Source of the DNA: an uncultured Methanoregulaceae archaeon
GTDB lineage: Archaea > Halobacteriota > Methanomicrobia > Methanomicrobiales > Methanospirillaceae
Length of the DNA stretch: 64,000 bases
NCBI GenBank assembly: GCA_963730355.1
Contig: CAVSRL010000007.1
Coordinates: 23,517 to 87,516, forward strand
Direction: 5' to 3'
A model generated the notes under the pieces. It was not told the DNA's origin and made no database searches. It worked only from the letters and a program-made list of their open reading frames with translations. This document shows, in pieces, positions 1,598 to 23,544 of the stretch. Numbering within the stretch: position 1 is the first letter of the stretch; each line of letters starts with the position of its first letter. The translations under genes and the position numbers were made by a program.

Positions 1598-1610
1598 TCT
1601 TTTTTCTCTC
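1598..1610 (+). terminator. Oligo-T tract downstream of cls
   Basis: ctcttttttctctc begins about 10 nt after the cls stop. Archaeal terminators are oligo-T runs. Confidence 0.4.
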
Positions 1611-3059: not shown

Positions 3060-3293
3060 TCCATCTCTCGAACCCGGATCGATATCCCAGGTACGTCGCC
3101 GATACCATTCCTCGATCCACGCACTGCTGCCGAGCGTGCACGGCATCGGGGGCTGCATCGATCCGAAGACCTCAACCATTACACAAGATGTGTTCTTAAG
3201 GGGGCGGTCGAGGCAATCGCGATAGATTTTGCACCGGCATGCGCGCAGGACGAGCAAGCCATGGCAAATGATACCGCTGGTTGAAATCATTGA

Positions 3294-3377
3294 GAGAATT
3301 AGAAGTCATTTTGGCCCCCTCTCGGTTTGGGAACCCCTACATTTTCTCCTATAAGCCGTTGGAGGGAATAGGGATGG
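3294..3377. repeat. Repeat B copy 1, followed by a 15-nt duplicate of the tRNA-Thr 3' end
   Basis: 3294-3350 matches 4875-4932 with a few mismatches. gccgttggagggaat at 3355-3369 is identical to 7951-7965, the 3' end of tRNA-Thr. It is followed by aatagggatgg, which also occurs at 4857-4866 and 7881-7891. Confidence 0.6.
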
Positions 3378-3545
3378 CTATGGTTAGATTCCCTCGGCTT
3401 TGCTATTAAACAGAGACATCAATGTACCCACTCAAATGCGAACGGCGAATATGCCGTCATCTCACTTCCCGAAGAAAACGGGGGAGCCAGAGGAGGGAAA
3501 ATCTGTCCTCGCGTAAGCCCCTCAGGATAGCGCACCCGGCGCCGG

Positions 3546-4094
3546 TTACAGGGCGCTCGGTCCCGCGTCCCGAACCCTGACCTGGATCTTCATGCCGGTG
3601 ATCTTCCGGTAGATCCTCCGCTTCCTCCTCAACTGACGGTATTCGTACATGAAGTACTCGTACGTATGCCAGACGGTCACCCAGTTCAGGATGGTGATCA
3701 GACCGCCGAGAAGCAGAACGACCGGATTTTCGAAATCCAGATCCAGGTAAAAGACAAAGAGGATCGCGACGGTCGCGTTGAACGCGGCAATAATGATACT
3801 GATCTCTCCTTCCGACAGGGACAATCGCTTCTCGTGGTCCAGATCGTTCAACCGGAATGCGAAGTGGCGTCGAATGGTATCGGGAATGCGGGCGAGCAGG
3901 TCCCCGGTAACGGAGGCCTGCGGCAGGGAGACGGTCAGCTCCACCGGCCGTCTGACCGTGAACTCATCGACGTATCCCGCGATCGTCTCCTCGGCCAGTT
4001 CGGTCAGCTCCTTCTCCGGGAGGGGGGAGGGGTCCTCGGGATCGAGGAGCTCGCTCCAAGGCCTTGAACTCAAGGTCCAGATTGATCGTCCCAC
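3546..4094 (-). CDS. Membrane protein, function unknown
   Basis: 182-aa ORF with a soluble N-terminal part and two C-terminal TM helices. A protein-like frame continues upstream to about 4245 in another frame, so the 5' end may be truncated by a frame break. Confidence 0.5.
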   Translation of the reverse strand: MGRSIWTLSSRPWSELLDPEDPSPLPEKELTELAEETIAGYVDEFTVRRPVELTVSLPQASVTGDLLARIPDTIRRHFAFRLNDLDHEKRLSLSEGEISIIIAAFNATVAILFVFYLDLDFENPVVLLLGGLITILNWVTVWHTYEYFMYEYRQLRRKRRIYRKITGMKIQVRVRDAGPSAL

Positions 4095-4743
4095 CCGACT
4101 CCGATCTCTTCACAGCGATCTCTCTCATCGACGCGTCCTCCGCGATCCCGAGGTCTCGGTCCAGATCTGCCGGATGTTCATGGCTGATGTCACCGTCTTG
4201 CTGTAAATGGATAAACAGTATCGCCGGGAGAGCGGCGCACCGCATTCGAGGGGGGCCTGTGGTGGCCGGCCGGAGACCTGCAGGGTCGATCCGTCTGCGT
4301 CCGCCCGATCCTTTCCGTAGACGGGGATCCTTCGGGATATCTCTCCAACCCCGACGGTGTCAGCTCGCCATCCGGTCGATTGCAGCCGTGATCGCAAGGA
4401 CAAGCGCGTCGTCCTGTCCCGGGGCGATCTCCACCCCAGGCGTCGCGCCAGGCCTGTGATAGCGGGCGACGCTCGTCTTTCCAAGAAATATGGAAAAGGT
4501 TGAGGGTTCGCAGGAACCCGCGATTATGCCGTCTGGAGCTGCTCTGCCGCGTCGGCGCCCTGGGCAAGGGCCGCGCCGTCATCTCCTCCGTAATCCTGCT
4601 GATCGATGACTGGGTTCCTGCCGAGACTATCGACTCGCCAAAATTTCGCCTGCCTGCCACGCCCCCGGCTCGATCCGCAGACGTCGCCTCGTCCGGAGAA
4701 ATTATTGGCGGCAAGTACTCCGGCGCCGTGCGGGATCATCGCG

Positions 4744-4932
4744 CACGGATTTAAACCAGGAAGTCGTGGAATCCGGGCTGAGGAATCGGCGATCGTATCG
4801 GCATGGTGCCCGCTCGCGCCCCCGACGCGACGACCGCAGGACCGATGCCCGGTAGTAATAGGGATTAAATTCCCGAGAAAGATTAGAGGTCAAGTTGGGT
4901 CCCTTCTGGTTTGGGAGCCCTGCATTTTCTCC
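4744..4932. repeat. Composite repeat: A copy 1 joined to B copy 2
   Basis: cacggatttaa...aatccgggctgaggaatcggcgat (4744-4796) and aatagggatt (4857-4866) match 7785-7891. 4875-4932 matches 3294-3350. Confidence 0.6.
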
Positions 4933-5110
4933 TTCATGCTGCGGGCGGGCTTCCGGACCGTGGGTATGGAGCCCCAGGCACGTTCGCACATCACTCCCCC
5001 ATCGCGTCCGTAGAGCGCTTCGTGGGTCCGACCGCGAAGCAGTACATTTTTTGTGGCACGCTCGTCCATTAGAACGATTATCGAAAGACAGCGTGACAAG
5101 GTGCTTGCTC

Positions 5111-6316
5111 ATGGAAAACAGAGATGGTAAAGATATGAAATCGATCGACTCCGGGTCCATGTCCCTGCCGGCGCCGGCATTCGCGGGCGGAACGAAGGCG
5201 ATCACCATGACCCCGGTTGTCGGCGCGCCGCGACGGGAGTACGCCGGGATGTTCGTCCCCGGTGAAGAGCCGCTCGAGGACGGCGAGATGCGCGTGACGG
5301 TGCTCGGGAGCGGCAATCCCTGGGTGACGCGCGGCCAGGCCTCGGCCAGCATCCTCGTCGAGGTCGGCAACGCCGAGCGCGACCTCCTGGTCTTCGACCT
5401 CGGGAGCGGCTCCCTCGCGAACTTTGCGAGTCTGAAGCTGCCGGTCAACAGGCTCAACAAGGTCTTCCTGACCCACCTGCACGCCGACCATATGGGCGAC
5501 CTCATCACGCTCTCCGGGAGCTTCTCGAAGATAGGCCGGGCGGACGGACCGGTCTACGTGTGGGGGCCCAGCGGAACCGAGCCCCGCCTGGGCACGCGGC
5601 ACTTCGTCGAGTCGATCCAGGAAGCGCTCGCGTGGGACACCGTGGCCGGGCACGGCGCCATCAACCCGGACAGCATGAGGCTCGTGGCATCCGAGTTCGA
5701 CTTCAGCCAGACCGGGGTGGTCTACGAGGAGAACGGCGTGAAGGTGACGTCGTTTCCCGTCGTCCACGCGGCGAGCGGCGCTGTCGGCTATCGCATCGAT
5801 TTCGCCGGCCTGTCGTTCGTCTTCTCGGGAGATGCCCGAGCGTGCTGGCCGCTCGTGCGTGCGTGCGACGGCGGCGTCGACCTGCTCATCCACGAGTGCT
5901 TCCCGCCGGCTGCGGCGCTCGCGGCCGCGTCGGGCCTCTCCATCGAGCGGGCGACGATGGCGCTCAATGCCGCCCACACCTCGCCGCGGGCTGCTGGAAA
6001 GGTCTTCGGGCTCGTGAGGCCGCGCATGGCCGGCCTCTGGCATACGCTCCTCCTGCCCCAGGTCATCCCACTGATCTTCTCGGAGCTCGGCGCGGTGTAC
6101 GACGGCCCCGTCGTCCAGACCCAGGACCTGACGGTAATCAACGTGACGAAGGAAGCCGTGGTCGCCCGCCAGGCACAGGTGGTGGACGAGTTGCCGCCGA
6201 TCCCGGGCGAGCAGCGTGTCGCCTACACGCCCGTCGAGCCGGCGCCTCCCGATTGGTGGGCAGAGGCACTTATCCCGCTCGACGACGTTCCAGCATCCGC
6301 CGTACGGAACGTATGA
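5111..6316 (+). CDS. MBL-fold metallo-hydrolase (RNase Z / beta-lactamase-like)
   Basis: HxHxDH motif (THLHADHMGD) in a typical MBL context. ATG 5111 or 5135 is preferred over the TTG 4895 of the track ORF, whose first 72 codons lie over repeat B. Confidence 0.8.
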   Translation: MENRDGKDMKSIDSGSMSLPAPAFAGGTKAITMTPVVGAPRREYAGMFVPGEEPLEDGEMRVTVLGSGNPWVTRGQASASILVEVGNAERDLLVFDLGSGSLANFASLKLPVNRLNKVFLTHLHADHMGDLITLSGSFSKIGRADGPVYVWGPSGTEPRLGTRHFVESIQEALAWDTVAGHGAINPDSMRLVASEFDFSQTGVVYEENGVKVTSFPVVHAASGAVGYRIDFAGLSFVFSGDARACWPLVRACDGGVDLLIHECFPPAAALAAASGLSIERATMALNAAHTSPRAAGKVFGLVRPRMAGLWHTLLLPQVIPLIFSELGAVYDGPVVQTQDLTVINVTKEAVVARQAQVVDELPPIPGEQRVAYTPVEPAPPDWWAEALIPLDDVPASAVRNV

Positions 6317-6633
6317 GGAGATCCCTGGGAAAAATCTGGAGGGACGGTAGAACCGGTGCATCACGAACACGATGCACTCCGCAGGGAAGTCCGATCGATA
6401 GGGCGAAAACCATCTCATGTGTCTTCGCCTTGAGTTGCCACCGGAGTTTGTTGGTATTGACCGGTGGCCCGGGAGAGGGGCGCGAACGGCGACGATCAAC
6501 AGCGAGGGCCAAGGGGGAGGGGGCGATGCCGTCCGAAGAGGCGATTGTGGGCCGTCATCCGGCGATCAGTCCGTGACGAGGTATAAATCGGATGCACCCT
6601 CGCGGACAAAGCAGATGACGGAGATGGACGGCG

Positions 6634-7344
6634 ATGACGGCGGTGAATGAATCCACGCCCGAAGAACGAATGAACCTTGCACGGCAACGGCTCAAAGCAC
6701 CCCGCTCGGCGGCGATTGCCGGCATCGTGTTCGCCCTCCTGTACGGCTCGGCCATGACGCTCGTGGCCCTCGCGATCGGCGCCGACAACGTCGCTGCCGG
6801 CACCTGGCTGGATACCCACTCGAATAACCTTTCGTTCGCGATGCTGATGATCCCGTACGCCGGGATCGCGTTCCTCTGGTTCATCGGGGTGATCCGGGAC
6901 CAGCTGGGCGATGCCGAGGACCGTCTCTTCTCCACGGTCTTCCTGGGCAGCGGCCTTCTGTTCATGGCCCTCACGTTCATCGCCGCAGCCCAGGTGAGCG
7001 GCCTCCTCAGCAGCTATGCCCTTCTCTCGAACACGCTCATCGAGAGCGGCGTCTTCCTCTACGGCCGGTCGGTGATCTATCAGGTCCTCAACCTCTACGC
7101 GATCCGCATGGCGGGCGTCTTCATGATCACGCTGGGGACGATCTGGCTTCGGACGGGCGTGATGCGCCGCGCCTGGGCGATCCTGACCTATGTGCTGGCG
7201 CTGGTCCTGCTGCTCAGCATCGGTTTGTCCATCTGGGTGGTCCTGATCTTCCCGGCATGGGTGCTGTTGGTCAGCGTTATCGTGCTCGTCCGGAGCTTCA
7301 ACATCGGCTCGAAGGGGGCAGCTGTGGAGGCGGGAGCCGGCTGA
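6634..7344 (+). CDS. Polytopic membrane protein, function unknown
   Basis: Intact 236-aa ORF with about 6 TM helices and coding-type codon bias. Confidence 0.6.
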   Translation: MTAVNESTPEERMNLARQRLKAPRSAAIAGIVFALLYGSAMTLVALAIGADNVAAGTWLDTHSNNLSFAMLMIPYAGIAFLWFIGVIRDQLGDAEDRLFSTVFLGSGLLFMALTFIAAAQVSGLLSSYALLSNTLIESGVFLYGRSVIYQVLNLYAIRMAGVFMITLGTIWLRTGVMRRAWAILTYVLALVLLLSIGLSIWVVLIFPAWVLLVSVIVLVRSFNIGSKGAAVEAGAG

Positions 7345-7784
7345 TCCGCTCGAGAAGAGAGGCGTGGGGAAGAGATATTCACTCAGGGAGCTCAGGGAGA
7401 CGTCCACTCTCCGATGTCTCGGATTTCCTCTGGCTCCGAGTTTTTTTCCGTCCGCATGCCAGGAAGTGACGTGCTCTCCGACGACATTGCGCACCGGCGC
7501 CGCGGGACTGTCACGGGCGCTCATGGCGTGACTGTGCACCCGGGTCCACCGGGGTCAACGATCCTGGTCGGAGGAGCCCGTAGCTCAGCCCGCTTCGGCC
7601 CCACCTATCATGGTGGCCATCACTGCAGGAGTATCAACCGCGTCTCCGCAGGGAGGTCTCGGTGAGCGGTTAGAGCGAGGCCGGGACTCAAACGGGGACC
7701 GCAATCTTCCCGGTCATGAGCCCCGCAAGTAGCGCCTCCTTGTAGTAGATTATGGGTGGTTCGTACCATGGCGCAATCCGGGAT

Positions 7785-7891
7785 CACGGTTTAAGGCATT
7801 GAACCGAGAAGGTGTAAAATCCGGGCTGAGGAATTGGTGATAAATTCGACTTACTGCCGGTCTAAGCCTCTGTGCACGGCAATAGGATTGG
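7785..7891. repeat. Repeat A copy 2
   Basis: cacggtttaa...aatccgggctgaggaattggtgat...aataggattgg matches 4744-4866. It is followed by an AT-rich 60 nt and then tRNA-Thr. Confidence 0.6.
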
Positions 7892-7949
7892 TGAAAACTG
7901 ATTAAATAATAGTACTTGATAAATATAGATAGTTAAACATTTTTCCGAG

Positions 7950-8021
7950 AGCCGTTGGAGGGAATCGAACCCCCGACCTGTTGATTACGAATCAACCGCT
8001 ATACCGCTAAGCCACAACGGC
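7950..8021 (-). tRNA. tRNA-Thr (anticodon CGU)
   Basis: The reverse complement folds as a cloverleaf: acceptor GCCGTTG/CAACGGC, anticodon arm GTTGA-TTCGTAA-TCAAC, T arm GGGGG-TTCGATT-CCCTC. No encoded CCA. Confidence 0.9.
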
Positions 8022-8210
8022 GCGTGCGACCTCAATAAGTCTGCCCCGGAGACAGATAAAAGTAGTGACCTCGACCCGGTCGGACGCCCCCCCGTGCGTC
8101 CTGAAAGCCGTCGGGAAACGCCGTAACACCGCCGGGTCTTCCATCGGCGGGACACGAGGGATCGGCACGTTAATCCCCCCCATGACCGATACCAGTCCAG
8201 TGACTCTCCA

Positions 8211-8567
8211 ATGGCTGTACAAACGGTAAGGGTGAGGAGGATCGATCTGCTCGGCGCCGCCCTGCTCTCGACGGTGGCGTCCGCGATCGCCGGGCTGTTC
8301 ATCGGGATCCTCTTCCTGCTCTCGTCCCTCTTCCTGGGCTCGCTGGTGGCGGATATCCCCCTGATCGGCAGGGCGATCGCCGACCAGTGGACCTCGATGG
8401 GTGTCGTTGGGCTGATCGCGAGTCCAATCGTCTTCGCGATCCTCGGGTTCGTCGTCGGTGCCGTCACCGCGGTCTGCGTGAACGCAGTGCTGCCGAGGAT
8501 GGACGGACTCATGCTGGAGGCGGATCTCGACGTGGACACCACTCCTTTGGGCGGCGAAGAGAGGTAA
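8211..8567 (+). CDS. Small membrane protein, function unknown
   Basis: 118-aa ORF with three hydrophobic helices. Convergent with cooC. An imperfect inverted repeat (ccgtccggtaca / tgtaccgacgg, about 8627-8679) lies between them. Confidence 0.45.
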   Translation: MAVQTVRVRRIDLLGAALLSTVASAIAGLFIGILFLLSSLFLGSLVADIPLIGRAIADQWTSMGVVGLIASPIVFAILGFVVGAVTAVCVNAVLPRMDGLMLEADLDVDTTPLGGEER

Positions 8568-8695
8568 GGCGAGCGATCGCAGCGCGCTGTGTGGGTCGTC
8601 CGTGCCGCGAGGGTATCTGTTCGCCGTCCGGTACAGGCAAAAGGGCGGGAGACGGCCCACACCGTGTACCGACGGTCTCAAGGCAGGTGATCAAC

Positions 8696-9443
8696 TCAGC
8701 GAGCCATTCCGCGAATCCGCTCGGCGAGTCTCTCGATGGCCAGCCTTGCCGGGCTGTCGTCGGGGATCGTGACGATCGGCCGGCCCTCGAGGTCGGCCTC
8801 CTCGACGGCCGGGTCCGCCGGGACTTCGGCGATCAGCGGTACGGGCTCCCCACCGACATCGGCCGCGCCGGCCCGGACGCGGTTGACGACGAGATACATC
8901 CTCTCCTTCGGCAGTCCGAGCGAGAGCGCGATGTCGCGGATCCGGGTCGCGGTCCGCATGCCCCGCGCCCCCGGGTCCGAGACGATCAGCAGAAGGTCCG
9001 GCGTCCCGATCGTGCCGCGGGAGATGTGCTCCATCCCGGCCTCGGCGTCGATCACGATGAACCGGTACTCCGCCTGGAGGTCGGCCAGGCACTCGGAGAG
9101 GAGGTCGTTCGAGAAGCAGTAGCAGCCCGTCCCCTCGGGCCGGCCCATCGCGATCAGGTCCACGCCCGTCCCCTCGACCAGCACCTGGCGGAAGCGGAGC
9201 CGGACGTAGTCGTGGCGGGACATCCCGGCCGGGATCGCCTTCGTGAACGCCTCCTCGCGCATCGCGCCGAGGGACTCGGTCACCTCCATGCCGAGGGCCT
9301 CGTGGAGGTTCGCGTTCGGGTCCGCGTCGACGCCGAGGAGCGGGGTCTCGCCCATCCTCCTGAACGCGTCGATCAGGAGCGCGGCCGTCGTGGTCTTGCC
9401 CGTGCCGCCCTTGCCCGAGAGCGCGATCCGGAACGGGCGGCAT
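8696..9443 (-). CDS. cooC: CooC/AcsF-type Ni-insertion ATPase
   Basis: P-loop GKGGTGKTT and the CYC nickel motif (EGTGCYCFSN). ATG 9443-9441 overlaps the upstream stop (TGATG), but the body is in another frame. One extra C in a CCC run near 9435 separates them. Confidence 0.85.
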
Positions 9444-10471
9444 CAGGTCCCCTCCCGCCACGTGCGGGCGACGGCGGCGGCCGTCTGCTGGATCCGGCCG
9501 GCCTCCTCCTCGTTCGCGAACTTGATCCCGCAGCTCGGCGTGATCAGCGACTGCCGGACGAGGAGCGCCGGGTCGACGTACTCGGCCATCGTCGCGCGGA
9601 TCGCGGCCATGCGCGCCACGAGCGAGGCCTCGGTCTCCTCCGCGAAGAGGCGGGCGTCGGCCGGCACCACGCCCCACGCGACGATCCCGCCGCGCTCGAG
9701 GTACGCGGCCGCGTGCTCGGCGTAGAGCAGGAACTCCGTCGCGGTCTGATACGCGTCGAGCGAGATCACGGCCGGGTCGAGGTCCATCACGAAGGTCCAG
9801 TCCGTGTTCGAGCAGCAGTGGACCCCGAGGCCGCCGTTGACGAGGGACGCGATGTCCTCGAACGCGAGCCGGACCGTCTCGTCCGAGACCGGGACCACGG
9901 TCGAACCGAGGCTCGCCCAGTACGGCTCGTTCAGGACCACGAGTGTCTCGGGCACGCCCGTCGCGGCGAGCCGCTCCTCGACCGCGCGGGCCCGGAGCGC
10001 GAGCATCTTGCCGAGCAGGTCCGCGTAGGCCTCGTCGTAGAGGATCGGCCGCTTGTCGCGGTCGACCACCTGCATCCCGAACGTGACCGGCCCCGTCACC
10101 TGGGCCTTGACCAGGACCGCGGACGAGAGGTCGCGGGAGACGAGGTCGAGGAGGCCGGAGTAGGTCTCGGGGGCCGGCCCGTACGCCGCTGCGTCCTGCC
10201 CGACGAAGTCCAGGTAGACCCGTTCCATCGCCTCCGAGTGGTCGGCCGCGAGGTCGACCACGAGCCGGCCCTCGGTCACCTCGAGGCCGGGGAGGGTCCG
10301 GGCGTCGTTCCAGACGATCTGCTCGAAGGGGCCGCGGTTCGGCAGGCCCGGCGCGTACGGGACGTCGGGGAATGCGGCGAGCACGTCGTCGACCGCGCGG
10401 GCCGGGTCCGTGTGCGGCAGGCCGCCGACGCCGGTCGCGCGGCCGTCCGTGGGAGAGAGAAAGCGTGCCAT
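9443..10471 (-). CDS. Core-MetE-like methyltransferase (cobalamin-independent methionine synthase catalytic-domain family)
   Basis: Intact 342-aa ORF. LNEPYW, GVHCCSN (HxC), ISLDA and TPSCG resemble the MetE Zn/homocysteine site. Family call is from motifs only; an MtaA/UroD-like alternative is not excluded. Confidence 0.65.
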   Translation of the reverse strand: MARFLSPTDGRATGVGGLPHTDPARAVDDVLAAFPDVPYAPGLPNRGPFEQIVWNDARTLPGLEVTEGRLVVDLAADHSEAMERVYLDFVGQDAAAYGPAPETYSGLLDLVSRDLSSAVLVKAQVTGPVTFGMQVVDRDKRPILYDEAYADLLGKMLALRARAVEERLAATGVPETLVVLNEPYWASLGSTVVPVSDETVRLAFEDIASLVNGGLGVHCCSNTDWTFVMDLDPAVISLDAYQTATEFLLYAEHAAAYLERGGIVAWGVVPADARLFAEETEASLVARMAAIRATMAEYVDPALLVRQSLITPSCGIKFANEEEAGRIQQTAAAVARTWREGT

Positions 10472-10474
10472 GGG

Positions 10475-12408
10475 TCAGGCCTCCGTGTGATGGATCCCGT
10501 TCGAGTGCGCCCGGAGCCGGCACCGGTCGAGCATGGCCGAGACCCCGGGGAAGAGCTCGAGGTCCGTGTGCGGCAGGAACGAGGAGGAGGTGTACTCCTC
10601 CATGAACGAGGGCTCGGCGTTCAGCTCGATGTAGGCGATGTTGTCCGCGATCACGTCGAGCGTGCGCCGCTCGTCGCGGTTGATCAGCGCGATGTTCGCG
10701 CCGTTGACGGCGCCGTTGCCGATGTTCTTGATCCGGTCGAGCGGGACCTCGGGGATCAGGCCGATCGTGATCGCGTTCTGCTTGTTGATGTAGTTGCCGA
10801 AGCCGCCCGAGAAGTAGATCGTGCCGAGGTCGCGTGTGCGTGATCCCGGCCACGTTCATCAGGACCGCGCAGGCCGCGAGGACCGAGGCCTTGGACATGA
10901 TCAGGGACTTGATGTCGTTCTCGGTCACGACGAGGTCCTTGCCGATCCCGGTCTCGTCCGCGAACGCGACCACGTACTCGGGGGCGTACTCGCCCTTCCG
11001 GACGCGCGGGTGGTCGATGGTCGTGTCGATCAGGCCGTTCCGGTCGATCACGCAGGCCGTCAGGAGTTCGGCGAGCAGGTCGATCAGGCCCGAGCCGCAG
11101 ATCCCCTTCGGCTTGAGGTCGTTGATCGTCTTCCAGCTCGGTTCGAGCGTCATCGGGGTCGATGGTCACGCGCTCGATCGCGCCGGGGTTCGCGCGCATG
11201 CCGAAGAGGACCTCGCCGCCCTCGAGGGCCGGGCCGGCGGCGCCCGCGCACGAGAACATCCACTCGTTGTTGCCGAGCACGACCTCGAAGTTGGTGCCGA
11301 TGTCGATCATCAGCGAGACCTCGTCGCTCGTGCCCATGCCGCAGGCGAGCACGTCCGCGATGATGTCGCCGCCGATGAAGTCCGAGACGGCCGGGAACGC
11401 GAAGACGCCCGCGGTGGGTGCGACCGAGAGGCCCAGGTTCGAGGCCGCCGTGTTGATCGACCGCCGGACCACCGGGACGTACGGCTCGGAGATGATGTAC
11501 GCGGGGTCGATCCCGAGGAGCATGTGGGTCATGACCGTGTTCCCGGCGACCATCACCTCGTAGATGTCGTCGCGGTCGATCTTCGCGTGGTTCGCCGCGT
11601 TCGTGATCGCGGTGTTGATCGACTCGGCCGCGAGGGTCTGGAGCTTCGCGAGGCCCGACTTCCGCCCGAAGTTGACGCGCGAGAGGATGTCCTCGCCGCA
11701 CGAGATCTGGCGGTTGTAGTTCGAGGCGATCCCGGCGACCTTTCCCGAGACCAGGTCCCAGATGTAGGCCACGACCGTGGTCGTGCCGAGGTCGATCGAG
11801 ACCCCGTAGAGCCGGTCCGAGGTGTCGCCGGCCTCGACGTTCAGGAGCCAGTACTTGCCCGGCGGCTGGAGCCCGACCGTCGCGGTCACGTCCCAGTCGG
11901 CCGCGCGGAGGATCTCCGGGATCTGGCGGAGCACGCCGAGCGGCGCGAAGATCTTCTCGGGCGGGGGACCGTGCTGCCGGTGGATGGCGTCGAGCATCCG
12001 GTTCAGGTCGGGCGACGGGTCCTCGAGGGTCGGCGCCGAGAGCGTGACGTGGTACTTCAGCACCGACGGCCGGAACGCGGTCGTGATGTCGAGCCCCTCG
12101 ATCAGGATCTTCTGCTCCTGGATCAGCGAGCCCTCGGGCACGGTCACGTCGAGGTCCGAGACGACCGCGGTCGTGCAGGCCAGGCAGGCCCCGCGCCCGA
12201 GCTCGGCCGGCGTGAAGAACCGGCCGTACTTCTGCCGGTCGAACTCGGCCTTGCCGGCCTTGACGTAGACCAGGCACTTGCCGCACTTGCCCACGCCGCC
12301 GCAGACCACGTTCATCTGGAGGCCGGCGCGGCGCGCCGCGTCGAGGATGGTCGTGCCCGGCGGCACCTCGACCTTGCGGTAACTCGGGAGGAAGGTGACG
12401 ACCGGCAT
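10475..12408 (-). CDS. acsV: Reductive activator of corrinoid Fe-S protein (RACo/AcsV type)
   Basis: N-terminal 2Fe-2S ferredoxin fold (CGGVGKCGKC...C) plus an ASKHA ATPase body (IDLGTTT, DIGTN, YFSGGFGNY). Frame breaks near 11155 (G4 run) and 10840. Confidence 0.8.
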
Positions 12409-13747
12409 CTATCCCTTCCACTCCGTCTCGAGGAACGCGCCGATGTCGGCCGCGTCGCGGGGGCCGACCATCACCGTCCACTTGGTCGCGTCCTCGATCG
12501 CGCCCGAGAGCGGGGACGCGTACCCCGGGATGATCAGTTTCCGGTGCGTGACCGCGGTCTCGACCTCGAACTTCCGGATCGCGTCCGCGACCACGGTCTC
12601 GGAGAGCTTGCCGGCCGCCACCGCGGTCAGCACGGACTGCCCCTCGGTGTCGACGATCAGCATGTAGCAGGGGATCCGGGTCGACTCGAGGTAGCCCTGG
12701 AGCGTGAAGAAGGTGAGCGAGAAGTTCACGGTCATCAGCACCGGGGCCTCGGGGCCGGGGTTGCCGATCCGGTAGAGACCCGGCGTCATCTGGATCGGCT
12801 TCTGCGGATCGGTGTAGACGTTCTGCCGGAGGGTCAGGGCCGCGATCGTCTCGGGGCGCGAGAGCGGGCCGGCCACGAGGACCGAGCCGAACTTCAGGAT
12901 CCCGAGCGCGAGCGCATCCGGCGCGAGGGCGCCGACCTTCGAGCAGTCGTAGTAGACCGGGTAGCCGAGCTCGGGCACGGCCCGCGCGATGGCCGAGCTG
13001 CCGGACGGCCGAGGAGCGCTCCACGAACTCGGCCGGGGTCGGGGCGTCGAGGTCGAGCACGAGGTCCGCGACGCCGAGCGCGGTGCAGCGCTGCACGAGT
13101 GCCACGAGCGGCTCGAGGTCGGGGGCGCGGACCACGAGCGGGGCGCCGTGCTTCTTCGCGAGGGCGCAGACGGCCTCGGCGTTCGCCTCGGTGGCGCCGT
13201 CGAGGAGCGGGCGGAAGGTGCCGCAGTGGGCGAGCCCGGCCTCGAGCGCGGCCGGGTCGTCCGCGATCAGCACCTCGGGCAGGTCGGCGTTCGCCTCGAC
13301 GATTGCGACGGCCCGGCCGAACGCGGCCGGGTCGCCCGAGTCGTTCGCGACCGCGACCCCGTTCAGCAGGAGGTCCTGGCCGACCCGGGTCAGCTTGAAG
13401 TCGCGGACCTCGTGGACCACGCCCGTGATCGTGGCCTCGTCCCAGGTATCCGAGACCCGGAAGAGGATGGCCGGCTGGTGGTAGAAGGTCTTCTCGTGCC
13501 GGTAGAAGACGAACTCGTCGCCGACCCGGAACGAGCGCTCGCCGACCCCGACCTTCACGAGCCGGATCGGCGGCCGGGTCGAGGCCCCGAGCACGGCCTT
13601 CGCGTTCTCGTCGAGGTACGGGCAGAGCTCGACGTCGGCCTTGCCCGACGCGAGCTTCATGGCGAACGTCAGGCAGGTCGGGACGCCGCACTCCTTGCAG
13701 TTCTTCTTGGGCAGGAGCTTGTAGATGTCGAGGGCCTTGAGCGCCAT
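12409..13747 (-). CDS. acsC: Corrinoid iron-sulfur protein, large subunit
   Basis: N-terminal 4Fe-4S motif KNCKECGVPTCLTFAMKLA...LCPY. About 446 aa, the bacterial AcsC size. One frame break near 12993. Confidence 0.85.
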
Positions 13748-14685
13748 CAGGTCGACCCCCAGGTCGCCTCGATCGCGGCCTTGAGCGGCGCGACCGAGTC
13801 GGGGTGGCGGACGCAGACGATCGCGGCGCCCGCGACGGCCGCGGCCAGACCGGTCGTGACCTCCCAGGCGACCGCGGTCCGGTGGGCCTCGCCGGGCGGG
13901 GCGTCGCGGACCTCCTTGATCGTGAGCGAGTCCGGGGCCGACGAGATCATGGGCATGGCCAGGTCCGCGTCGCCCTTGAGGGCCGCGTACCGGATCCGCT
14001 CCATGGCCGAGTAGGAGTACTCGAACCCGTACCCGAGCGCGCCCGTGTACGGGTCGATCACGATCTGCTCGTGGGGCACGCCGATCTCCCGGAGCAGGAT
14101 GTTGAGCTGTTTTGCGAGGTTCACGTCGATCGGGGACTGCGCGATCACCGCGTGGTGGTACGCGAGGGCGGCGGCCGCGACCGATCGGTACCGGGCGGCC
14201 TCGGCCGTACCGAGCAGGAGGCGCTCGCCCTCGCCGGCCTCGCCGATCCGGCGGAAGGCCTCGGACTCGATCGCGGGCTCGTTCGGCCCCTCCACGATCA
14301 GCGGCAGGTCGGTCGCCTCGAGCACGGTCCGGACGGCCGTCCCGATGGCGTCGAAATCGTCGAAACCGCGCCGCTTCGTCGAGGTCAGGTAGAGCCGGAC
14401 CAGGTCGGCGCCGAGGTCCGTCCCGGCCATTCTCGCCCAGCAGGCGAGGTCGGCGGCCGTCGCGCCGAGGCGCTCGATCGCGAGCGGCGACCAGTACGTC
14501 GGGTCGTCGCAGAGCTCGTACGCGACGAGCGGGCGCGTCAGGCCGTCGTTCGGCTCGACGAACGGGAGCCCCGCGTTGCCGCCGATCCGGTACGAGACCC
14601 TCCGGGTTCCGCCTTCGGCCGAGGTCGCACCGATCTGGACCAATCCGATGGTGCCGTTCCAGTCCGCGGGTGGTGCGTACGCCAT
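13747..14685 (-). CDS. acsD: Corrinoid iron-sulfur protein, small subunit
   Basis: Intact, 312 aa (bacterial AcsD size). ATG 14685 is preceded by GGAGAC. Shares one base with the acsC start. Confidence 0.8.
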   Translation of the reverse strand: MAYAPPADWNGTIGLVQIGATSAEGGTRRVSYRIGGNAGLPFVEPNDGLTRPLVAYELCDDPTYWSPLAIERLGATAADLACWARMAGTDLGADLVRLYLTSTKRRGFDDFDAIGTAVRTVLEATDLPLIVEGPNEPAIESEAFRRIGEAGEGERLLLGTAEAARYRSVAAAALAYHHAVIAQSPIDVNLAKQLNILLREIGVPHEQIVIDPYTGALGYGFEYSYSAMERIRYAALKGDADLAMPMISSAPDSLTIKEVRDAPPGEAHRTAVAWEVTTGLAAAVAGAAIVCVRHPDSVAPLKAAIEATWGST

Positions 14686-14693
14686 GGGGTCTC

Positions 14694-16727
14694 CTAGAAG
14701 AGCTCCTTCATGGCGAGCGCGGGGTGGCCGACGGACTCGAGGTAGGTCATCAGCTCCTCGATGGTGTTCGCCTCGTGCTCGGTCGCGATCTTGTCGAAGA
14801 GGTCCGCGAGGCCCCGCTCGGCGAGCTTCGCCTTCAGGCGGGGCGCGAGCTCCTCCTTGAGGGCCGCCGGGAGCCAGACCAGCCGCTCGATCCCGCCCTC
14901 GGCCTGGAGGAAGCGGTCCGAGAGGAGGTAGCCCTTCGAGATCCCGGCGAAGCCCGGCGTCTGCGAGCCGCCGCCGATGGTGCCGGCGAGGGTCGAGAAG
15001 GTCATGCCCGAGGGGGTCTCGCCCTTGTACTCGCGGTTCACGACCATGATCCCGTTCACCTCGGGAAGCACGAGCGCGATCGCCTCGAAGCAGCCGCAGG
15101 CGGTCATGGGGTACTCGACCACCGCGTAGAGCCGGCACCGGTCGACCGCGCCGTGCGAGGCCTTCTTGATGAACCGGTTCACGCCCTCGAACTCGCCGCC
15201 GCTCCGGTCGATCAGCCCCTCCTTCTTGACCGGCTGGTTCGCGCCGGCCGGCGAGATCTCGTGGGCGATGCGCCCGTCGAGCCAGGAGATGGCGCCGCAG
15301 AGCGCGGGCCGCTCGGGCGTGATGACGCAGACGTGGTCGGGGGCGAAGGTCTGGCAGAGCGTGCAGGAGTAGAAGACGTCCACGTCGTCGTCCTTCATCC
15401 CGCGGATCCGGGCGTCGCGCTCCTCGTAGACCGCGTCGGCCTCCTGCTTGAGCCGCTCGACCTCCGCCCGGTCCGTGACGAGCGTCACCTGGACCGCGTC
15501 GAGCAGGTCGGGGAAGTCCATCCGGAACTTCGCGGCGAGGAGCTTGCCGAGGTGCTCGATCCGGAGGCCGTTCTTGACGGCCTCTTTGGAGATACGCACC
15601 CAGATCAGGTCCCGCTGTGCCGTGTGCCAGGAGCCCTCGCCGTAGTTGACGAAGTTGTGGATCCGCCGCTCGAGGACAGGCTCGTAGTCCTTCCGGAAGT
15701 TCGTGCCGGCCACGTCGACCAGGATCGCGAGCGGAACGGCCGTCCCCTCCTCGAGCTCCTCGATCTCGGGGCCGATCACGGTCACCCTGCCGTCCTCGAC
15801 CTCGGACGGGTCCTTCATCCGCAGGAGTTCGAACGCGGGCGACCGCCCGCCGCCGAACTCGACGTACATCTCCTCCTTGCGGATCGACTTGCCCTCGAAT
15901 GCGGGCGAGCAGCCCATCGGGATCGGGATCGCCGTGACCGTGACCCGGATGCCGAGGAGGTCCATGCCGGACCTGACCGCGTCCTTCCCCTCGGTCGCGG
16001 TCCAGTCGCCGCCCTCGTACCCGCCCGTGTGCAGGATCGGGATGCCGAGCATGCGGAGCGCGTCGACGCAGGCCACCTCCTCGTCCGAGAGGCCCGGGAA
16101 CGCGATCACCATCGCCCGGGCCCGCCGCTCGGCCGCGTACGCGAGCAATCGCGCCGCGTCGCCGGGCGTGACCCCGCCGAACATCATCGCGACGCGGGCG
16201 AGAATATCGGCGAAGTGGACGCCGTGCGACGGCGTCGGGCCGAGCGGGACAAGCCGGTACTCGAGCCCGACGCGGACGTGCGCCTCCTGGAGCGCGGGCA
16301 CGACCGGGCCCGCGAGGAAGGTCAGCATGTACTTCTCCTGGAGCTCGCGGCAGAGCGCGGCGGCCACGTCGGCGTGGTCGGGTTTGCCGACGATCAGGCA
16401 GAGCCCGAGGATCGAGCCGTCCACGAGCGAGTACCCGAGCTTCCGGATCTCGGCGTCGGGGATGAAGCCCGTGTACGGCGGGCCTTCCGGGCCGGACCCG
16501 GCGGCCCGGTGAGCCCGGACGCACTCCCAGGCGACGAGCGGGTTGTCGGCGGAGGCCGCGTACGCGGCCCGGGCCGAGTCGGCATCGGTCACCGGGGTGC
16601 CGGTCACCGCGAACGAGATCGGCAGGTGGTACGCGGTCTCCTCGTAGGCGAGGGGGCCGTCGAGCGCGGCCATCGCCGTTTCGAGCGCGGCACCGCCCGC
16701 CTCGACGGCCCGTGGAATATCGATCAT
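14694..16727 (-). CDS. acsB: Acetyl-CoA synthase, bacterial AcsB type (with N-terminal domain)
   Basis: Intact 677 aa. A-cluster signature PMTACGCFEAI and FYSCTLCQTFAPDHVCVITPERPALCG. Has the extra ~250-aa N-terminal domain absent from archaeal CdhC. The C-terminus ...GHPALAMKELF is clostridial-like. Confidence 0.9.
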   Translation of the reverse strand: MIDIPRAVEAGGAALETAMAALDGPLAYEETAYHLPISFAVTGTPVTDADSARAAYAASADNPLVAWECVRAHRAAGSGPEGPPYTGFIPDAEIRKLGYSLVDGSILGLCLIVGKPDHADVAAALCRELQEKYMLTFLAGPVVPALQEAHVRVGLEYRLVPLGPTPSHGVHFADILARVAMMFGGVTPGDAARLLAYAAERRARAMVIAFPGLSDEEVACVDALRMLGIPILHTGGYEGGDWTATEGKDAVRSGMDLLGIRVTVTAIPIPMGCSPAFEGKSIRKEEMYVEFGGGRSPAFELLRMKDPSEVEDGRVTVIGPEIEELEEGTAVPLAILVDVAGTNFRKDYEPVLERRIHNFVNYGEGSWHTAQRDLIWVRISKEAVKNGLRIEHLGKLLAAKFRMDFPDLLDAVQVTLVTDRAEVERLKQEADAVYEERDARIRGMKDDDVDVFYSCTLCQTFAPDHVCVITPERPALCGAISWLDGRIAHEISPAGANQPVKKEGLIDRSGGEFEGVNRFIKKASHGAVDRCRLYAVVEYPMTACGCFEAIALVLPEVNGIMVVNREYKGETPSGMTFSTLAGTIGGGSQTPGFAGISKGYLLSDRFLQAEGGIERLVWLPAALKEELAPRLKAKLAERGLADLFDKIATEHEANTIEELMTYLESVGHPALAMKELF

Positions 16728-17076
16728 CGCGAGATTCTCCCGAGTACCTCTCTTGGGTACGCGTCTATATCATGGCATCGAACATGGCGCACGGCCATGG
16801 TGACGGTGTCCGGCGCAGGGGATTTTGCGGTCGCGGAGGAGGAACTCCTCCGACGATGGCTGTCGAGAGGCGGCACCATTGCGGACGCGCCGGGGCGCCG
16901 ATGGCGCGCCCCGCAACGCGGAATTCAGCGAGCGCTCTGGCATCCAGCACGATAGAGACGTGATCGAGGAAGCGGCGATCCGGTGCGGTTTGGACCGATA
17001 CATTTTTCTCGGCTCGCCCGATAGAGACGGCTCGCCGCAGGCATGCCCCGGTCGTGGAGCGGAAGAATGTATGGAA

Positions 17077-17089
17077 AATATTTATATAC
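17077..17089 (+). promoter_or_regulatory. TATA box for cdc48
   Basis: aaatatttatatac lies about 50 nt upstream of ATG 17140. AGGAG is at 17128-17132. Confidence 0.45.
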
Positions 17090-17139
17090 TTTGTTACACT
17101 AACCTTAGGTGAATATAACTCAATTTACAGGAGATTTAC

Positions 17140-20037: not shown

Positions 20038-20140
20038 GAAGGTCTCACCGGCGACCGGACGGTCCGCTCTCCGCGGGAAGGAAGGTATATGTCCTCGACG
20101 ACCACAGTTGCTCGCCGGTTTCTACGGCGAGGGGACTGAG

Positions 20141-21322
20141 ATGACGAAGAGGACGGTCCAGGATCTGGACGTGGCCGGCCGGCGGGTGCTCGTACGGGTC
20201 GACTTCAATGTGCCGCTGAAGAACGGGATCATCACCGACGATTCCAAGATCAGGGCGGCGCTGCCGACGCTGTCGTACCTGGTCGGCCACGGGGCGAAGG
20301 TCATCGTCGGCTCGCACCTGGGCCGGCCGAAGGGCGAGGTCGTGGAGGCGCTCCGGACGGCCCCCGTGGCGGAACGGCTCGCGGCCCTCCTCGATCGCCC
20401 GGTCGCCGCGCTCCGGGACAGCATCGGGCCCGAGGTCGAGACGGCGATCGCCGGGATGCAGGACGGCGATGTGGCCATGCTCGAGAACCTCCGGTTCTAC
20501 CGCGAAGAGGAGGCGAACGACCCGGCCTTCGCGCAGGCCCTCGCAGCCCTCGCGGACCTCTACGTCAACGACGCGTTCGGCTCGAGCCACCGCGCCCACG
20601 CCTCCATCGTGGGCGTGCCGCGCCTGCTCCCGTCGGCCGCGGGCTGCCTGATGCAGCGGGAGATCGAGATGCTCGGCGGACTCCTCGAGCATCCCGAGCA
20701 CCCCTTCGCGGCAGTGATCGGCGGCGCGAAGCTGAGCAGCAAGCTCGGCGTCCTGAAGAACATCGTGCCCCTGGTCGACGTCCTGCTCATCGGGGGCGGG
20801 ATGGTGGCCACCGCGTACAGAAGCCGGGGGTACGGCGTGGGAAACTCGCGGGTGGAAGACGGGCTGCTCGACTACGTCCGCGAGCTCACGGAGCAGGCGG
20901 CGTCGCGCGGCGTCCGCCTGCTTCTGCCGACGGACGTGGTGGTCGCGGAGAGCCTGGAGGCGGGAGGCGGCGTGCGGACGGTGCCCGCCGACGCGATCCC
21001 CGAGGGATGGGTGATCGCGGATATCGGGCCCGCGACGATCGCAGAGTACTCGCGCGTTCTCGGGACCTGCCGGACAGTGGTCTGGAGCGGGCCGATGGGC
21101 GTCTTCGAGAACCCGGCCTTCGCGGAGGGCACGCGCGCCATCGCCACCGTGCTGGCCGATCTCGATGCCGTCACCGTCGTCGGGGGCGGCTCGACGGTCG
21201 AGGCCGTGACACGGATGGGCGTGGCCGACCGGATGTCGCATGTCTCGACGGGAGGCGGGGCCACGCTCGAGTTCCTCTCGGGCGAGACCCTGCCCGGTGT
21301 GGCCGCTCTCCCGGACCGGTGA
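20141..21322 (+). CDS. pgk: Phosphoglycerate kinase
   Basis: MTKRTVQDLDVAGRRVLVRVDFNVPL, SHLGRPKG. Intact. Internal ATG 20141 chosen over the longer track ORF. Confidence 0.9.
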   Translation: MTKRTVQDLDVAGRRVLVRVDFNVPLKNGIITDDSKIRAALPTLSYLVGHGAKVIVGSHLGRPKGEVVEALRTAPVAERLAALLDRPVAALRDSIGPEVETAIAGMQDGDVAMLENLRFYREEEANDPAFAQALAALADLYVNDAFGSSHRAHASIVGVPRLLPSAAGCLMQREIEMLGGLLEHPEHPFAAVIGGAKLSSKLGVLKNIVPLVDVLLIGGGMVATAYRSRGYGVGNSRVEDGLLDYVRELTEQAASRGVRLLLPTDVVVAESLEAGGGVRTVPADAIPEGWVIADIGPATIAEYSRVLGTCRTVVWSGPMGVFENPAFAEGTRAIATVLADLDAVTVVGGGSTVEAVTRMGVADRMSHVSTGGGATLEFLSGETLPGVAALPDR

Positions 21323-21371
21323 CCCGTCGACGACAGGATGTTATATCAGGTCCGACCGAAAGAGGGAAGGC

Positions 21372-22422: not shown

Positions 22423-22425
22423 TCC

Positions 22426-22433
22426 CATTTTTC
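22426..22433 (+). terminator. Oligo-T tract after pfp
   Basis: cattttt lies immediately after the stop. Confidence 0.35.
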
Positions 22434-23537: not shown

Positions 23538-23544
23538 GGCCTGC

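Follow-up and report, generated by a model that had tools for sequence, protein, structure and literature searches.

A six-gene cluster on the minus strand of the 64-kb stretch of DNA analysed here (the window) joins a bacterial-type acetyl-CoA synthase (ACS) and its corrinoid protein to a homologue of the MesB-type core methionine synthase. We lean towards reading it as an operon-like module, made up of AcsB, AcsC/AcsD, RACo, the MesB-like protein and a CooC/AcsF-type ATPase, that would pass the methyl group of acetyl-CoA to a thiol, with homocysteine as the likeliest acceptor. The linkage had been thought undescribed for methanogens in a preliminary description of this DNA, which was mistaken: Price 2021 (PMC7857596) had already reported MesB in Methanomicrobiales (6 of 12 proteomes), described methanogen operons of MesB with acsC/acsD and proposed CoFeSP as the methyl donor of MesB, which leaves the central claim without novelty. 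The sole new detail, as judged from alignments, is that the Methanomicrobiales clade appears to have exchanged two residues that normally hold homocysteine. The features are as follows.

8696-9443, minus strand: gene for a CooC/AcsF-family P-loop ATPase (GKGGTGKT and CYC motifs; Pfam CbiA and AAA_31)
9443-10471, minus strand: mesB-like gene, putative zinc thiol methyltransferase with a predicted MetE fold (342 aa, intact)
10475-12408, minus strand: RACo/acsV, ATP-dependent reductive activator of the corrinoid protein (643 aa after frame repair)
12409-13747, minus strand: acsC, large subunit of the corrinoid iron-sulfur protein (445 aa after frame repair)
13747-14685, minus strand: acsD, small subunit of the corrinoid iron-sulfur protein (312 aa, intact)
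14694-16727, minus strand: acsB, bacterial-type acetyl-CoA synthase, A-cluster subunit (677 aa, intact)
16728-17139, no strand assigned: intergenic region between acsB and the divergent cdc48 (from reading of the sequence)

Gene content, order, strand and junctions agreed with the preliminary description when the coordinates were checked. acsB and acsD are separated by 8 nt, acsC and the stop codon of acsD have one base in common (13747), RACo begins immediately past the acsC stop, 3 nt lie between RACo and the 342-aa ORF, and the latter overlaps the cooC-like gene in the sequence TGATG. About 40 nt upstream of the acsB start codon lies the hexamer ATATAG (16765-16770), which might serve as an archaeal TATA box. 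The order acsB-acsD-acsC-RACo-mesB-cooC recurs in about 40 species-level genomes of Methanomicrobiales, including the genera Methanoregula, Methanosphaerula, Methanolinea, Methanoculleus and Methanofollis as well as Methanospirillaceae. In Methanomassiliicoccales the same genes are linked in a different arrangement, which argues for a functional link between them.

All six gene identities proposed earlier were correct, five being confirmed by Pfam and NCBIfam and the 342-aa protein being placed through its fold and family. AcsB carries the CGC motif PMTACGCFEAI and the Cys-rich CTLCQTFAPDHVCVITPERPALC, and matched Pfam CdhC and ACS_CODH_B_C as well as NCBIfam NF040764 (884 bits, cut-off 800). 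Its best PDB match was the ACS of C. hydrogenoformans (632 bits, residues 23-676), whereas archaeal CdhC (9c0s_E, 397 bits) spanned residues 269-672 only; AcsB thus retains the N-terminal domain that archaeal CdhC does not have. AcsD matched Pfam CdhD and NF003376 (330.6 bits, cut-off 280), with the small CFeSP subunit of M. thermoacetica (4djd_D) as its best PDB match. After repair of the frameshifts described below, AcsC matched NF003195 with 533 bits over residues 1-444, the Pfam FeS domain, Pfam CdhD (2-386/387) and PDB 2h9a_A over its full length. With the best matches of AcsC and AcsD among bacterial CFeSPs, the bacterial type claimed for all three Acs proteins was borne out. Repaired RACo contains Fer2, RACo_linker, Raco_middle and RACo_C_ter (1-260/261) domains, and its 565 bits against NCBIfam AcsV lie under the cut-off of 800.

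The MesB-like protein and its thiol substrate

Searches of the 342-aa protein against Pfam, NCBIfam and PDB sequence models gave no match, even at E<=10. Its AF2 model (pLDDT 88) had MetE structures (1xpg and 4ztx, E about 1e-8) as best Foldseek matches, ahead of URO-D, with E 1.4e-8 for MetE and 3.7e-5 for the MtaA-like 4ay7. The model thus supports a MetE fold and, together with the HxC...D...C zinc site that has been kept, upholds the earlier view that the protein resembles the catalytic domain of MetE; the URO-D Pfam model did not match the window protein and gave a weak match in only 2 of 64 family members. Homologues from Dehalococcoidia, Anaerolineae and Methanomassiliicoccales scored 199-246 bits. 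These comparisons support its placement in a Methanomicrobiales subfamily of the MesB/core-MetE family, whose prototype is the Dehalococcoides core-MetE (cbdbA481/DET0516), in line with the kinship suspected beforehand. The comparison ran through Dehalococcoidia homologues such as L074 of Dehalococcoidales, with cbdbA481 entering by its published residue numbers: L074 has S15, D178, H215, C217, D236 and C312, and the last four bear the numbers published for the cbdbA481 zinc ligands. cbdbA481 carries out methylcobalamin:homocysteine methyl transfer (Deobald 2020, PMC7005905), and bacterial homologues of the 342-aa protein often lie near metK and are named 'methionine synthase' by NCBI. Within the family, the Methanomicrobiales subfamily has diverged most, with 35% identity to other members compared with 42% between Methanomassiliicoccales and Chloroflexota members.

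The preliminary description would have given up its reading if the 342-aa protein lacked homocysteine-binding residues, and the aligned residues gave a divided answer. The zinc ligands are present (H218, C220, D239 and C314) and invariant in homologues. On the other hand, hhalign to E. coli MetE and a residue table placed Gly17 and Asn181 at the equivalents of Ser433 and Asp599, the two homocysteine contacts that MesB proteins conserve best, which in usual MesB serve the carboxylate and amino groups of homocysteine. Asn occupies position 181 in all 119 Methanomicrobiales homologues, and Ala or Gly occupies position 17 in 117 of them, whereas bacterial and Methanomassiliicoccales MesB keep Ser and Asp. 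Further clade-invariant changes adjoin conserved motifs (I52, V53, N55, D56, Q134 and S221). With two homocysteine contacts changed but every zinc ligand kept, the identity of the thiol substrate is uncertain, and we counted the clade-wide change of the Ser and Asp contacts against the methionine reading.

The route from acetyl-CoA through methyl-CFeSP to homocysteine, which had been put forward for this cluster, is the published model for the MesB family. In the module that we favour, AcsB would exchange the methyl group between acetyl-CoA and the corrinoid protein's cobalt, with CO and CoA being released or consumed, and RACo would re-reduce cobalt that had become oxidised to Co(II). The zinc site of the MesB-like enzyme would activate the thiol, and methyl would then pass to it from the methylated corrinoid protein; with homocysteine as the most likely thiol, the product would be methionine. 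The CooC/AcsF-type ATPase may mature the nickel site of AcsB by nickel insertion. MesA was present in 12 of 12 Methanomicrobiales proteomes examined (PMC7857596), so that there is no obvious need for a second, acetate-fed methionine synthase.

It is conceivable, though we think it unlikely, that the Methanomicrobiales MesB-like protein has ceased to be a methionine synthase and transfers methyl between the corrinoid protein and another thiol such as coenzyme M. The bacterial-type ACS would then have a direct tie, needing neither H4MPT nor AcsE, to the methyl pool of methanogenesis, and methyl groups might flow from acetyl-CoA to methyl-CoM or from a methyl-thioether to acetyl-CoA. The two replaced contacts, the many other clade-invariant changes beside conserved motifs, the divergence of the subfamily and the MesA already at hand would all fit such a switch, as would the position of the mesB-like gene in the slot that a corrinoid methyltransferase occupies in bacterial acs operons. 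However, Asn could still hydrogen-bond the amino group, and part of the role of Ser433 is played by its backbone, so that homocysteine might still bind, and the predicted fold is nearer to MetE than to the MtaA-type coenzyme M methyltransferase 4ay7. To our knowledge there is also no report of acetate-derived methane in Methanomicrobiales, which we counted against another thiol.

CODH, AcsE and the direction of methyl flow

The cluster had been called CODH-less, a label that the results support for the operon and the window only: tblastn with Methanoregulaceae CooS and a motif scan found no CODH in the 64 kb, and a Pfam search with corrected reading frames gave none in 15 of the 19 chunks that lie outside the cluster. 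For the remaining four (Cdc48 with a small neighbouring ORF, a 55-aa ORF, the C-terminus of asparagine synthase, and SMC) and for the stretches called non-coding, the coverage was by the tblastn and motif scans only. Across Methanomicrobiales a cooS-cooC unit is widespread; two Methanoregulaceae (L029 and L031) carry it, on the same strand, about 2 kb downstream of this cluster. As had been stated, the window has no AcsE, and neither do the clusters of relatives. The sole pterin-binding ORF in the window (60882-61703) was considered as AcsE and rejected, being a dihydropteroate synthase (TIGR01496, 177.7 bits, cut-off 162.6).

Because the cluster is without AcsE and CODH, the simplest direction would be cleavage of acetyl-CoA feeding methyl groups to the thiol, in the manner put forward for Dehalococcoides, with CO handled by a separately encoded CooS. 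The reverse, in which the module is the carbonyl branch of autotrophic acetyl-CoA synthesis with a stand-alone CooS elsewhere and the MesB-like protein diverts some methyl groups to methionine, strikes us as quite improbable. The widespread CooS-CooC pairs, including the two close to the cluster, and the N-terminal domain of AcsB, which is the CODH docking site in bacteria, speak for it, but there is no evident enzyme to methylate a bacterial-type CFeSP from methyl-H4MPT, with AcsE absent as described, and an acetate requirement has been described for many members of these genera.

Frameshifts in the cluster

Three of the six genes, acsC, RACo and the cooC-like gene, are not open as written and contain four frameshifts in total, which the preliminary description overlooked. 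Using a 92%-identical relative (L001) as the reference for placing indels, we located +1 nt shifts at about 12994 in acsC and at about 11151 and 10833 in RACo, each a frame switch and a single-base insertion relative to L001; deleting one base per site restored full-length profile matches for both genes. In the cooC-like gene, an indel within a C-rich stretch (about 9437-9440) puts the ATG at 9443 and the P-loop in different frames; the alignment to L001 has an 8-nt gap there, at about 9440. The cluster genes are intact in L001-L004, and in these and L029 the cooC-like gene encodes 253-254 aa. Frame switches also break phosphofructokinase, two fructose-bisphosphatases, aldolase, MoaA, asparagine synthase, AglB, aCPSF1/FttA, SMC, DHPS and CofE, among others, at about one per 2-2.5 kb across the window and at a similar rate inside the cluster. 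Since housekeeping genes are similarly broken window-wide and the relatives' genes are intact, the four frameshifts are best read as assembly errors. That they are genuine mutations in a pseudogene cluster decaying in this particular genome, as three interrupted genes might suggest, is very improbable given the similar rate of frame switches across the window, the lack of in-frame stops in the cluster genes beyond the four indels and the 90-96% identity of the cluster proteins to intact relatives.

Comparison with known systems

The machinery resembles that of bacteria. AcsB has three domains including the N-terminal one, as in C. hydrogenoformans (1RU3) and M. thermoacetica (1OAO), although it is about 50 residues shorter, the alignment beginning 25-35 residues further into the bacterial chains. 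AcsC (445 aa, N-terminal [4Fe-4S] motif) and AcsD (312 aa) resemble bacterial CFeSP (2H9A and 4DJD), and RACo with its 2Fe-2S and ASKHA domains and the CooC/AcsF-type ATPase are likewise of bacterial kind, but unlike bacterial acs operons this one has neither AcsA/CODH nor AcsE. The archaeal ACDS complex (CdhABCDE) uses the same A-cluster chemistry, its CdhC being homologous to AcsB residues 269-672; it differs in that CdhC is without the N-terminal domain, and in having CdhA/B (CODH) and obtaining methyl from methyl-H4MPT via its own subunits, which are absent from the cluster.

With MesB/core-MetE the 342-aa protein has in common a single-domain MetE-like barrel of about 340 aa without the folate-binding domain, zinc ligands His/Cys/Asp/Cys with identical spacing and an invariable accompaniment by acsC and acsD, while being only about 35% identical to bacterial MesB. 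MtaA, MtbA and MtsA (URO-D family) share zinc-thiolate methyl transfer from a corrinoid protein and a related TIM-barrel superfamily, with 4ay7 as a weaker structural match than MetE. As Zhuang 2014 is cited in PMC7005905 and PMC7857596, the incomplete Wood-Ljungdahl pathway of Dehalococcoides mccartyi has ACS and CFeSP without AcsE or MetF, and acetyl-CoA is cleaved, its methyl group going to methionine with CO as by-product. In contrast to D. mccartyi, the host here lives by hydrogenotrophic methanogenesis, has a complete H4MPT methyl branch and belongs to an order that generally has MesA and commonly encodes CooS, and whereas mesB in Chloroflexota lies near metK and not near acs genes, the methyltransferase gene here sits within the acs operon.

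Gene content and conservation of the acs cluster

The cluster consists of six closely packed minus-strand genes:

14694-16727, minus strand, acsB (677 aa)
13747-14685, minus strand, acsD (312 aa)
12409-13747, minus strand, acsC
10475-12408, minus strand, RACo/acsV
9443-10471, minus strand, mesB-like open reading frame (342 aa)
8696-9443, minus strand, gene for a CooC-like P-loop ATPase

In this order the junctions are an 8-nt gap, a one-base overlap, an abutment, a 3-nt gap and a TGATG overlap. Both the gene content and the junctions reported in the preliminary description were borne out by our translations, with Pfam and NCBIfam backing five of the six identities, and we have almost no doubt about what the module is. 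AcsB is a full-length acetyl-CoA synthase of the bacterial type, including the N-terminal domain. It scored 884 bits against the NCBIfam model for the bacterial alpha/beta enzyme (NF040764; cut-off 800; residues 8-676), aligned over residues 23-676 with PDB entries 1ru3 and 7zkj, and its translation displays the A-cluster cysteine motifs CGC and CxxC...C...C. Pairwise scores were 632 bits to C. hydrogenoformans ACS (residues 23-676) and 596 bits to M. thermoacetica ACS, whereas the archaeal CdhC chain 9c0s_E aligned only to residues 269-672, with 397 bits. The best PDB matches of AcsC and AcsD were likewise subunits of bacterial CFeSP (2h9a, 4djd). The large subunit AcsC carries an N-terminal Fe-S motif and a CdhD domain and reached 533 bits against NF003195 (cut-off 306) once one frameshift was repaired, and the small subunit AcsD reached 330.6 bits against NF003376 (cut-off 280). 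Architecture and similarity, as judged from PDB and NCBIfam scores, thus support the view that AcsB, AcsC and AcsD are of bacterial type. After repair of two frameshifts, RACo contained the Fer2, linker, middle and ASKHA C-terminal Pfam domains at full length, with 565 bits against the NCBIfam AcsV 'exception' model, which is under its cut-off of 800. The repaired translation of the CooC-like ATPase includes GKGGTGKT (deviant Walker A P-loop) and GCYC (CxC metal motif); its Pfam matches were general (CbiA, AAA_31), and no specific curated model in Pfam or NCBIfam was matched.

A one-genome-per-species scan returned 594 loci, the best 80 of which we searched locally with the six window proteins. 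Among these 80, the order acsB-acsD-acsC-RACo-342aa-cooC was found in every long-enough Methanomicrobiales contig, in about 40 species spanning Methanoregulaceae, Methanosphaerula, Methanolinea, Methanoculleus, Methanofollis and Methanospirillaceae. Methanomassiliicoccales have the same partners in another arrangement, with RACo followed by the homologue and cooC, and with acsB, acsD and acsC nearby on the opposite strand. Genes for AcsC and AcsD adjoin the mesB-like gene in the window, in about 40 Methanomicrobiales genomes and at the Methanomassiliicoccales loci. In Chloroflexota (Dehalococcoidia, Anaerolineae) the homologue lies away from the acs genes, and a SAM-synthetase motif is often found a few kb off on the same strand.

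The MetE-like protein and its thiol substrate

The 342-aa protein found no match in Pfam and NCBIfam, in Pfam at E<=10 or in a phmmer search of the PDB. In particular, it did not reach the gathering score of Pfam Meth_synt_2 (PF01717) and had no match to this model even at E<=10, although 10 of 64 diverse family members gave weak Meth_synt_2 matches (best 7.8e-6); a family profile searched against the PDB gave a marginal match only (3rpd, E 0.64). Its AF2 model, computed with 29 homologues, is a confidently predicted single barrel (pLDDT 88, pTM 0.90). When this model was used as a Foldseek query, the MetE structures 1xpg, 4ztx and 1xdj ranked first (E ~1e-8, TM ~0.62), with uroporphyrinogen decarboxylases and the MtaA-like 4ay7 below them; the model spans only roughly half the length of the MetE chains of 720-770 aa (TM-score normalised to the target ~0.3). 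The protein thus comprises one catalytic barrel and lacks the folate-binding N-terminal domain. Membership of the methylcobamide:CoM methyltransferases (MtaA/MtbA, URO-D family) was not supported: 4ay7 matched with E 3.7e-5 compared with 1.4e-8 for MetE, and Pfam yielded no URO-D match.

Two published studies define the family to which the protein can be compared. In D. mccartyi, the 343-aa 'core-MetE' cbdbA481 methylates homocysteine from methylcobalamin, has the zinc ligands His215, Cys217, Asp236 and Cys312, and is encoded in an operon with SAM synthetase (Deobald 2020, PMC7005905). Price, Deutschbauer and Arkin (2021, PMC7857596) named the family MesB, found it confined to organisms with AcsC/AcsD and proposed CoFeSP as the methyl donor; their S1 table lists MesA in 12 and MesB in 6 of 12 Methanomicrobiales proteomes. 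Their cut-offs for MesB were at least 130 bits in phmmer comparison with DET0516/cbdbA481 and 173 bits in profiling (PMC7857596). As a proxy for this comparison, in a set that does not include DET0516 itself, the 342-aa protein scored 199-246 bits to 39 homologues from Dehalococcoidia, Anaerolineae and Methanomassiliicoccales. One Dehalococcoidales homologue (L074) has H215, C217, D236 and C312, the same residue numbers as the published zinc ligands of cbdbA481, and its N-terminus, MTDTNF, resembles the MTKTDF of cbdbA481 deduced from a primer sequence. D. mccartyi was not among the matches listed in a search seeded with a Dehalococcoidales homologue, which were filled by metagenome proteins of at least 75% identity. 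Close homologues of the 342-aa protein number more than 1000; the named ones belong nearly all to Methanoregula, Methanospirillum, Methanomicrobiaceae and their relatives, and carry the label 'hypothetical'.

Zinc ligands of the MesB pattern His/Cys/Asp(Glu)/Cys are present in the 342-aa protein as H218, C220, D239 and C314, which show no or almost no variation in alignments A1 and A2 or among 400+ homologues. In an hhalign comparison of the clade alignment with the single E. coli MetE sequence, which has low power (probability 2%) and was used only for motif agreement with the published mapping, these residues pair with H641, C643, E665 and C726 in the C-terminal half of MetE. Together with the Foldseek ranking, the preserved zinc site shows that the MetE-like assignment made in the preliminary description was right. 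Since the zinc site is untouched, the protein is predicted to be an active thiol methyltransferase.

The picture at the homocysteine contacts is different. [quoted passage not shown] We counted residues in an alignment of ~410 family members. At the Ser433 position, the 119 Methanomicrobiales proteins have Ala (85), Gly (32) or Ser (1), the window protein having Gly17, whereas Ser occupies this position in 91-100% of bacterial MesB and in 5/5 Methanomassiliicoccales MesB. At the Asp599 position, all 119 Methanomicrobiales proteins have Asn (Asn181 in the window), compared with 94-100% Asp elsewhere in the family; hhalign also aligned N181 with MetE D599 (probability 2%). Scoring of both sets of ligands, as the preliminary description had proposed, hence gave a split result: the zinc ligands are kept, but the equivalents of Ser433 and Asp599 are replaced. 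Around 30 further positions are fixed differently in the Methanomicrobiales clade, where the family motif E-x-M-Y-x-Q-[FY] reads E-x-I-V-x-N-D. In the 342-aa protein, clade-invariant substitutions fall at residues 17, 52-56, 134, 181 and 221, both conserved homocysteine contacts among them. Within the family this clade has moreover diverged furthest, sharing 35% identity with the other members versus 42% between Methanomassiliicoccales and Chloroflexota. We did not find these clade substitutions discussed in the two key papers (PMC7005905, PMC7857596).

In the MesB-CoFeSP model, the corrinoid protein of the acetyl-CoA pathway would give its methyl group directly to homocysteine, yielding methionine. 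This mechanism, which is also that of the preliminary description, is the best supported for the module, and a role as methionine synthase is probable, albeit with considerable room for doubt. Homocysteine cannot be taken for granted as the thiol of the Methanomicrobiales protein: it is less certain because the Ser and Asp contacts have changed, especially as the organisms also have MesA. An altered thiol substrate for the Methanomicrobiales MesB-like protein is nevertheless unlikely. In a more specific version, the acs-linked protein would be a corrinoid-protein:thiol methyltransferase acting on another thiol, CoM being the most attractive, and would form an acetyl-CoA/methyl-CoM shunt. In favour of this proposal, the zinc site is kept while Asp has become Asn and Ser has become Ala/Gly, so that the charged and polar contacts to the amino-acid moiety of homocysteine are lost; we judge it quite unlikely.

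CODH, AcsE and the integrity of the reading frames

No CODH was detected in the 64-kb window by tblastn with a relative's CooS, by a cluster-motif scan or by Pfam, and neither the operon nor the window holds an AcsA/CooS-type CODH to accompany AcsB. Of the 19 chunks beyond the cluster, 15 entered the Pfam scan as translations with corrected frames; for the other four and for sequence called non-coding, coverage is by tblastn and motif scan alone. In relatives, no CODH was found within 10 kb of the cluster except in two Methanoregulaceae (L029, L031), in which a 651-aa CooS is encoded ~2 kb downstream on the same strand and is followed by its own CooC:

L029, 13878-16711, same strand as the six-gene cluster, CooS and second CooC
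L031, about 12913-15701, same strand as the six-gene cluster, CooS and second CooC

The relatives' CooS scored 677 bits against TIGR01702 (cut-off 478). CooS of the same type occurs widely among Methanomicrobiales, including Methanoregula, Methanolinea, Methanofollis and Methanolacinia, where cooS and cooC mostly form a pair at an unrelated site (L086, L087, L088). The preliminary description had called the system 'CODH-less', which is true of the operon and the window but unlikely as a statement on the order, as CooS is widespread there. These separate loci would fit a module that runs towards synthesis and relies on a CooS from another part of the genome, an alternative that we consider decidedly unlikely. 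Among the best 120 CooS matches, none was attributable, by amino-acid composition, to the high-GC lineage of the window. Because CooS brings its own CooC, we infer that the in-cluster ATPase is more likely to act on AcsB, as AcsF does. The absence of a pterin-binding AcsE from the window was confirmed: the sole pterin-binding ORF (Pterin_bind, 60882-61703), considered as a hidden AcsE, is a dihydropteroate synthase (DHPS).

The observation in the preliminary description is real, but it overlooked that three of the six cluster genes (acsC, RACo and the cooC-like gene) have no continuous reading frame in the assembly. The frame changes at ~12994 in acsC and at ~11151 and ~10833 in RACo, and the ATG of the cooC-like gene is out of frame with the P-loop, with an indel at ~9437-9440. 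Alignment with a relative of 92% DNA identity and an intact cluster (L001) revealed three single-base insertions in the window exactly at the acsC and RACo shift sites, and, where cooC begins, a gap of 8 nt within a C-rich tract. Removal of one base per site regained full-length domain matches in Pfam. Codon-position G+C segmentation of the whole window uncovered the same switching in many other genes, namely those for PFK, a DeoC-type aldolase, two FBPases, MoaA, AsnB, AglB, an amidohydrolase, aCPSF1/FttA, an MFS transporter, SMC, DHPS and CofE. Examples of switched stretches are 21353-22418, 22439-23533, 23602-24430, 24536-25611, 30278-31161, 31279-32954, 38388-40292, 41274-42285, 44354-46279, 46280-47327, 55788-58060, 60882-61703 and 61704-62489. 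The switches lack stop codons, and for most genes Pfam domains span the junctions when the segments are joined; the split in SMC was seen in segment translations. Outside the cluster the shift rate is ~1 per 2-2.5 kb, in line with that inside. Because essential genes are also affected and the genes in relatives are intact, we read the cluster shifts as assembly errors and not as operon decay. True pseudogenisation of the operon in the source genome, to which the three interrupted genes might point, is highly improbable and was set aside, as frameshifts of this sort also disrupt numerous housekeeping genes elsewhere in the window. The assembly seems to contain many indel errors, so that annotation based on ORFs would come out badly broken up in this window.

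By protein similarity, the source organism falls outside the named genera, in a Methanomicrobiales lineage of high G+C. G+C is ~68-70% over most of the window, which includes a complete archaeal rRNA operon (48234-53176, minus strand: 16S, tRNA-Ala in the spacer, 23S, 5S and tRNA-Cys) suited to placing the organism. On the plus strand, 20106-25611 is a single-strand gluconeogenesis/glycolysis block encoding phosphoglycerate kinase, phosphofructokinase, a DeoC-family aldolase, class I FBPase and archaeal class V FBPase (FBPase_3). A further plus-strand run, 58813-63831, encodes serine hydroxymethyltransferase, FolD, dihydropteroate synthase, CofE and a CbiA/CobB-type a,c-diamide synthase; its FolD is bona fide (NF010775, 496 bits, cut-off 465). 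A tetrahydrofolate-type FolD adjoining GlyA suggests a folate-dependent C1 side branch in this methanogen, such as is reported for Methanosarcina. Beside the cluster, ~640 bp (8022-8695) separate cooC from tRNA-Thr (7949-8021), which in L001 directly follows cooC, and this extra stretch holds a small hydrophobic ORF (8211-8567, plus strand, 118 aa). Past tRNA-Thr, window positions 1-8000 have a G+C of 59-64% and encode a cardiolipin-synthase-like PLD protein and a metallo-beta-lactamase-fold protein; synteny with L001 stops at the tRNA, and only a DUF2238 fragment (1918-2150) matches again, ~9 kb away in L001. Positions 1-8000 may be a variable island beside the tRNA.

Significance and relation to the MesB model

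Interest lies mainly in two features: the role of a bacterial ACS in methanogens that live by hydrogenotrophy, and the loss, specific to the clade, of two contacts to homocysteine. In this order of hydrogenotrophic methanogens, an ACS/CFeSP set of bacterial type that lacks a CODH and AcsE of its own is stable and widespread. Its physiological role is puzzling, as these organisms possess MesA too and in many cases require acetate; we found nothing specific in the literature on a bacterial-type or CODH-less ACS in Methanomicrobiales. There is also value for annotation, as MesB-like proteins are 'hypothetical' in most Methanomicrobiales genomes and are missed by Pfam and NCBIfam. If CoM were the thiol, the six genes would represent a soluble shunt linking acetyl-CoA and methyl-CoM, in which a horizontally acquired bacterial ACS is plugged into methanogenesis without H4MPT, Mtr or AcsE. 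Given the two clade-wide changes in homocysteine contacts, it is thiol specificity that separates a redundant methionine synthase from a novel connection of acetate to the methyl pool of methanogenesis. The linkage had been thought undescribed for methanogens, yet both it and the mechanism were already published as the MesB-CoFeSP model (Price 2021, PMC7857596). If that model holds, the cluster would be a further case in which the acetyl-CoA pathway's corrinoid protein directly supplies the methyl group of methionine.
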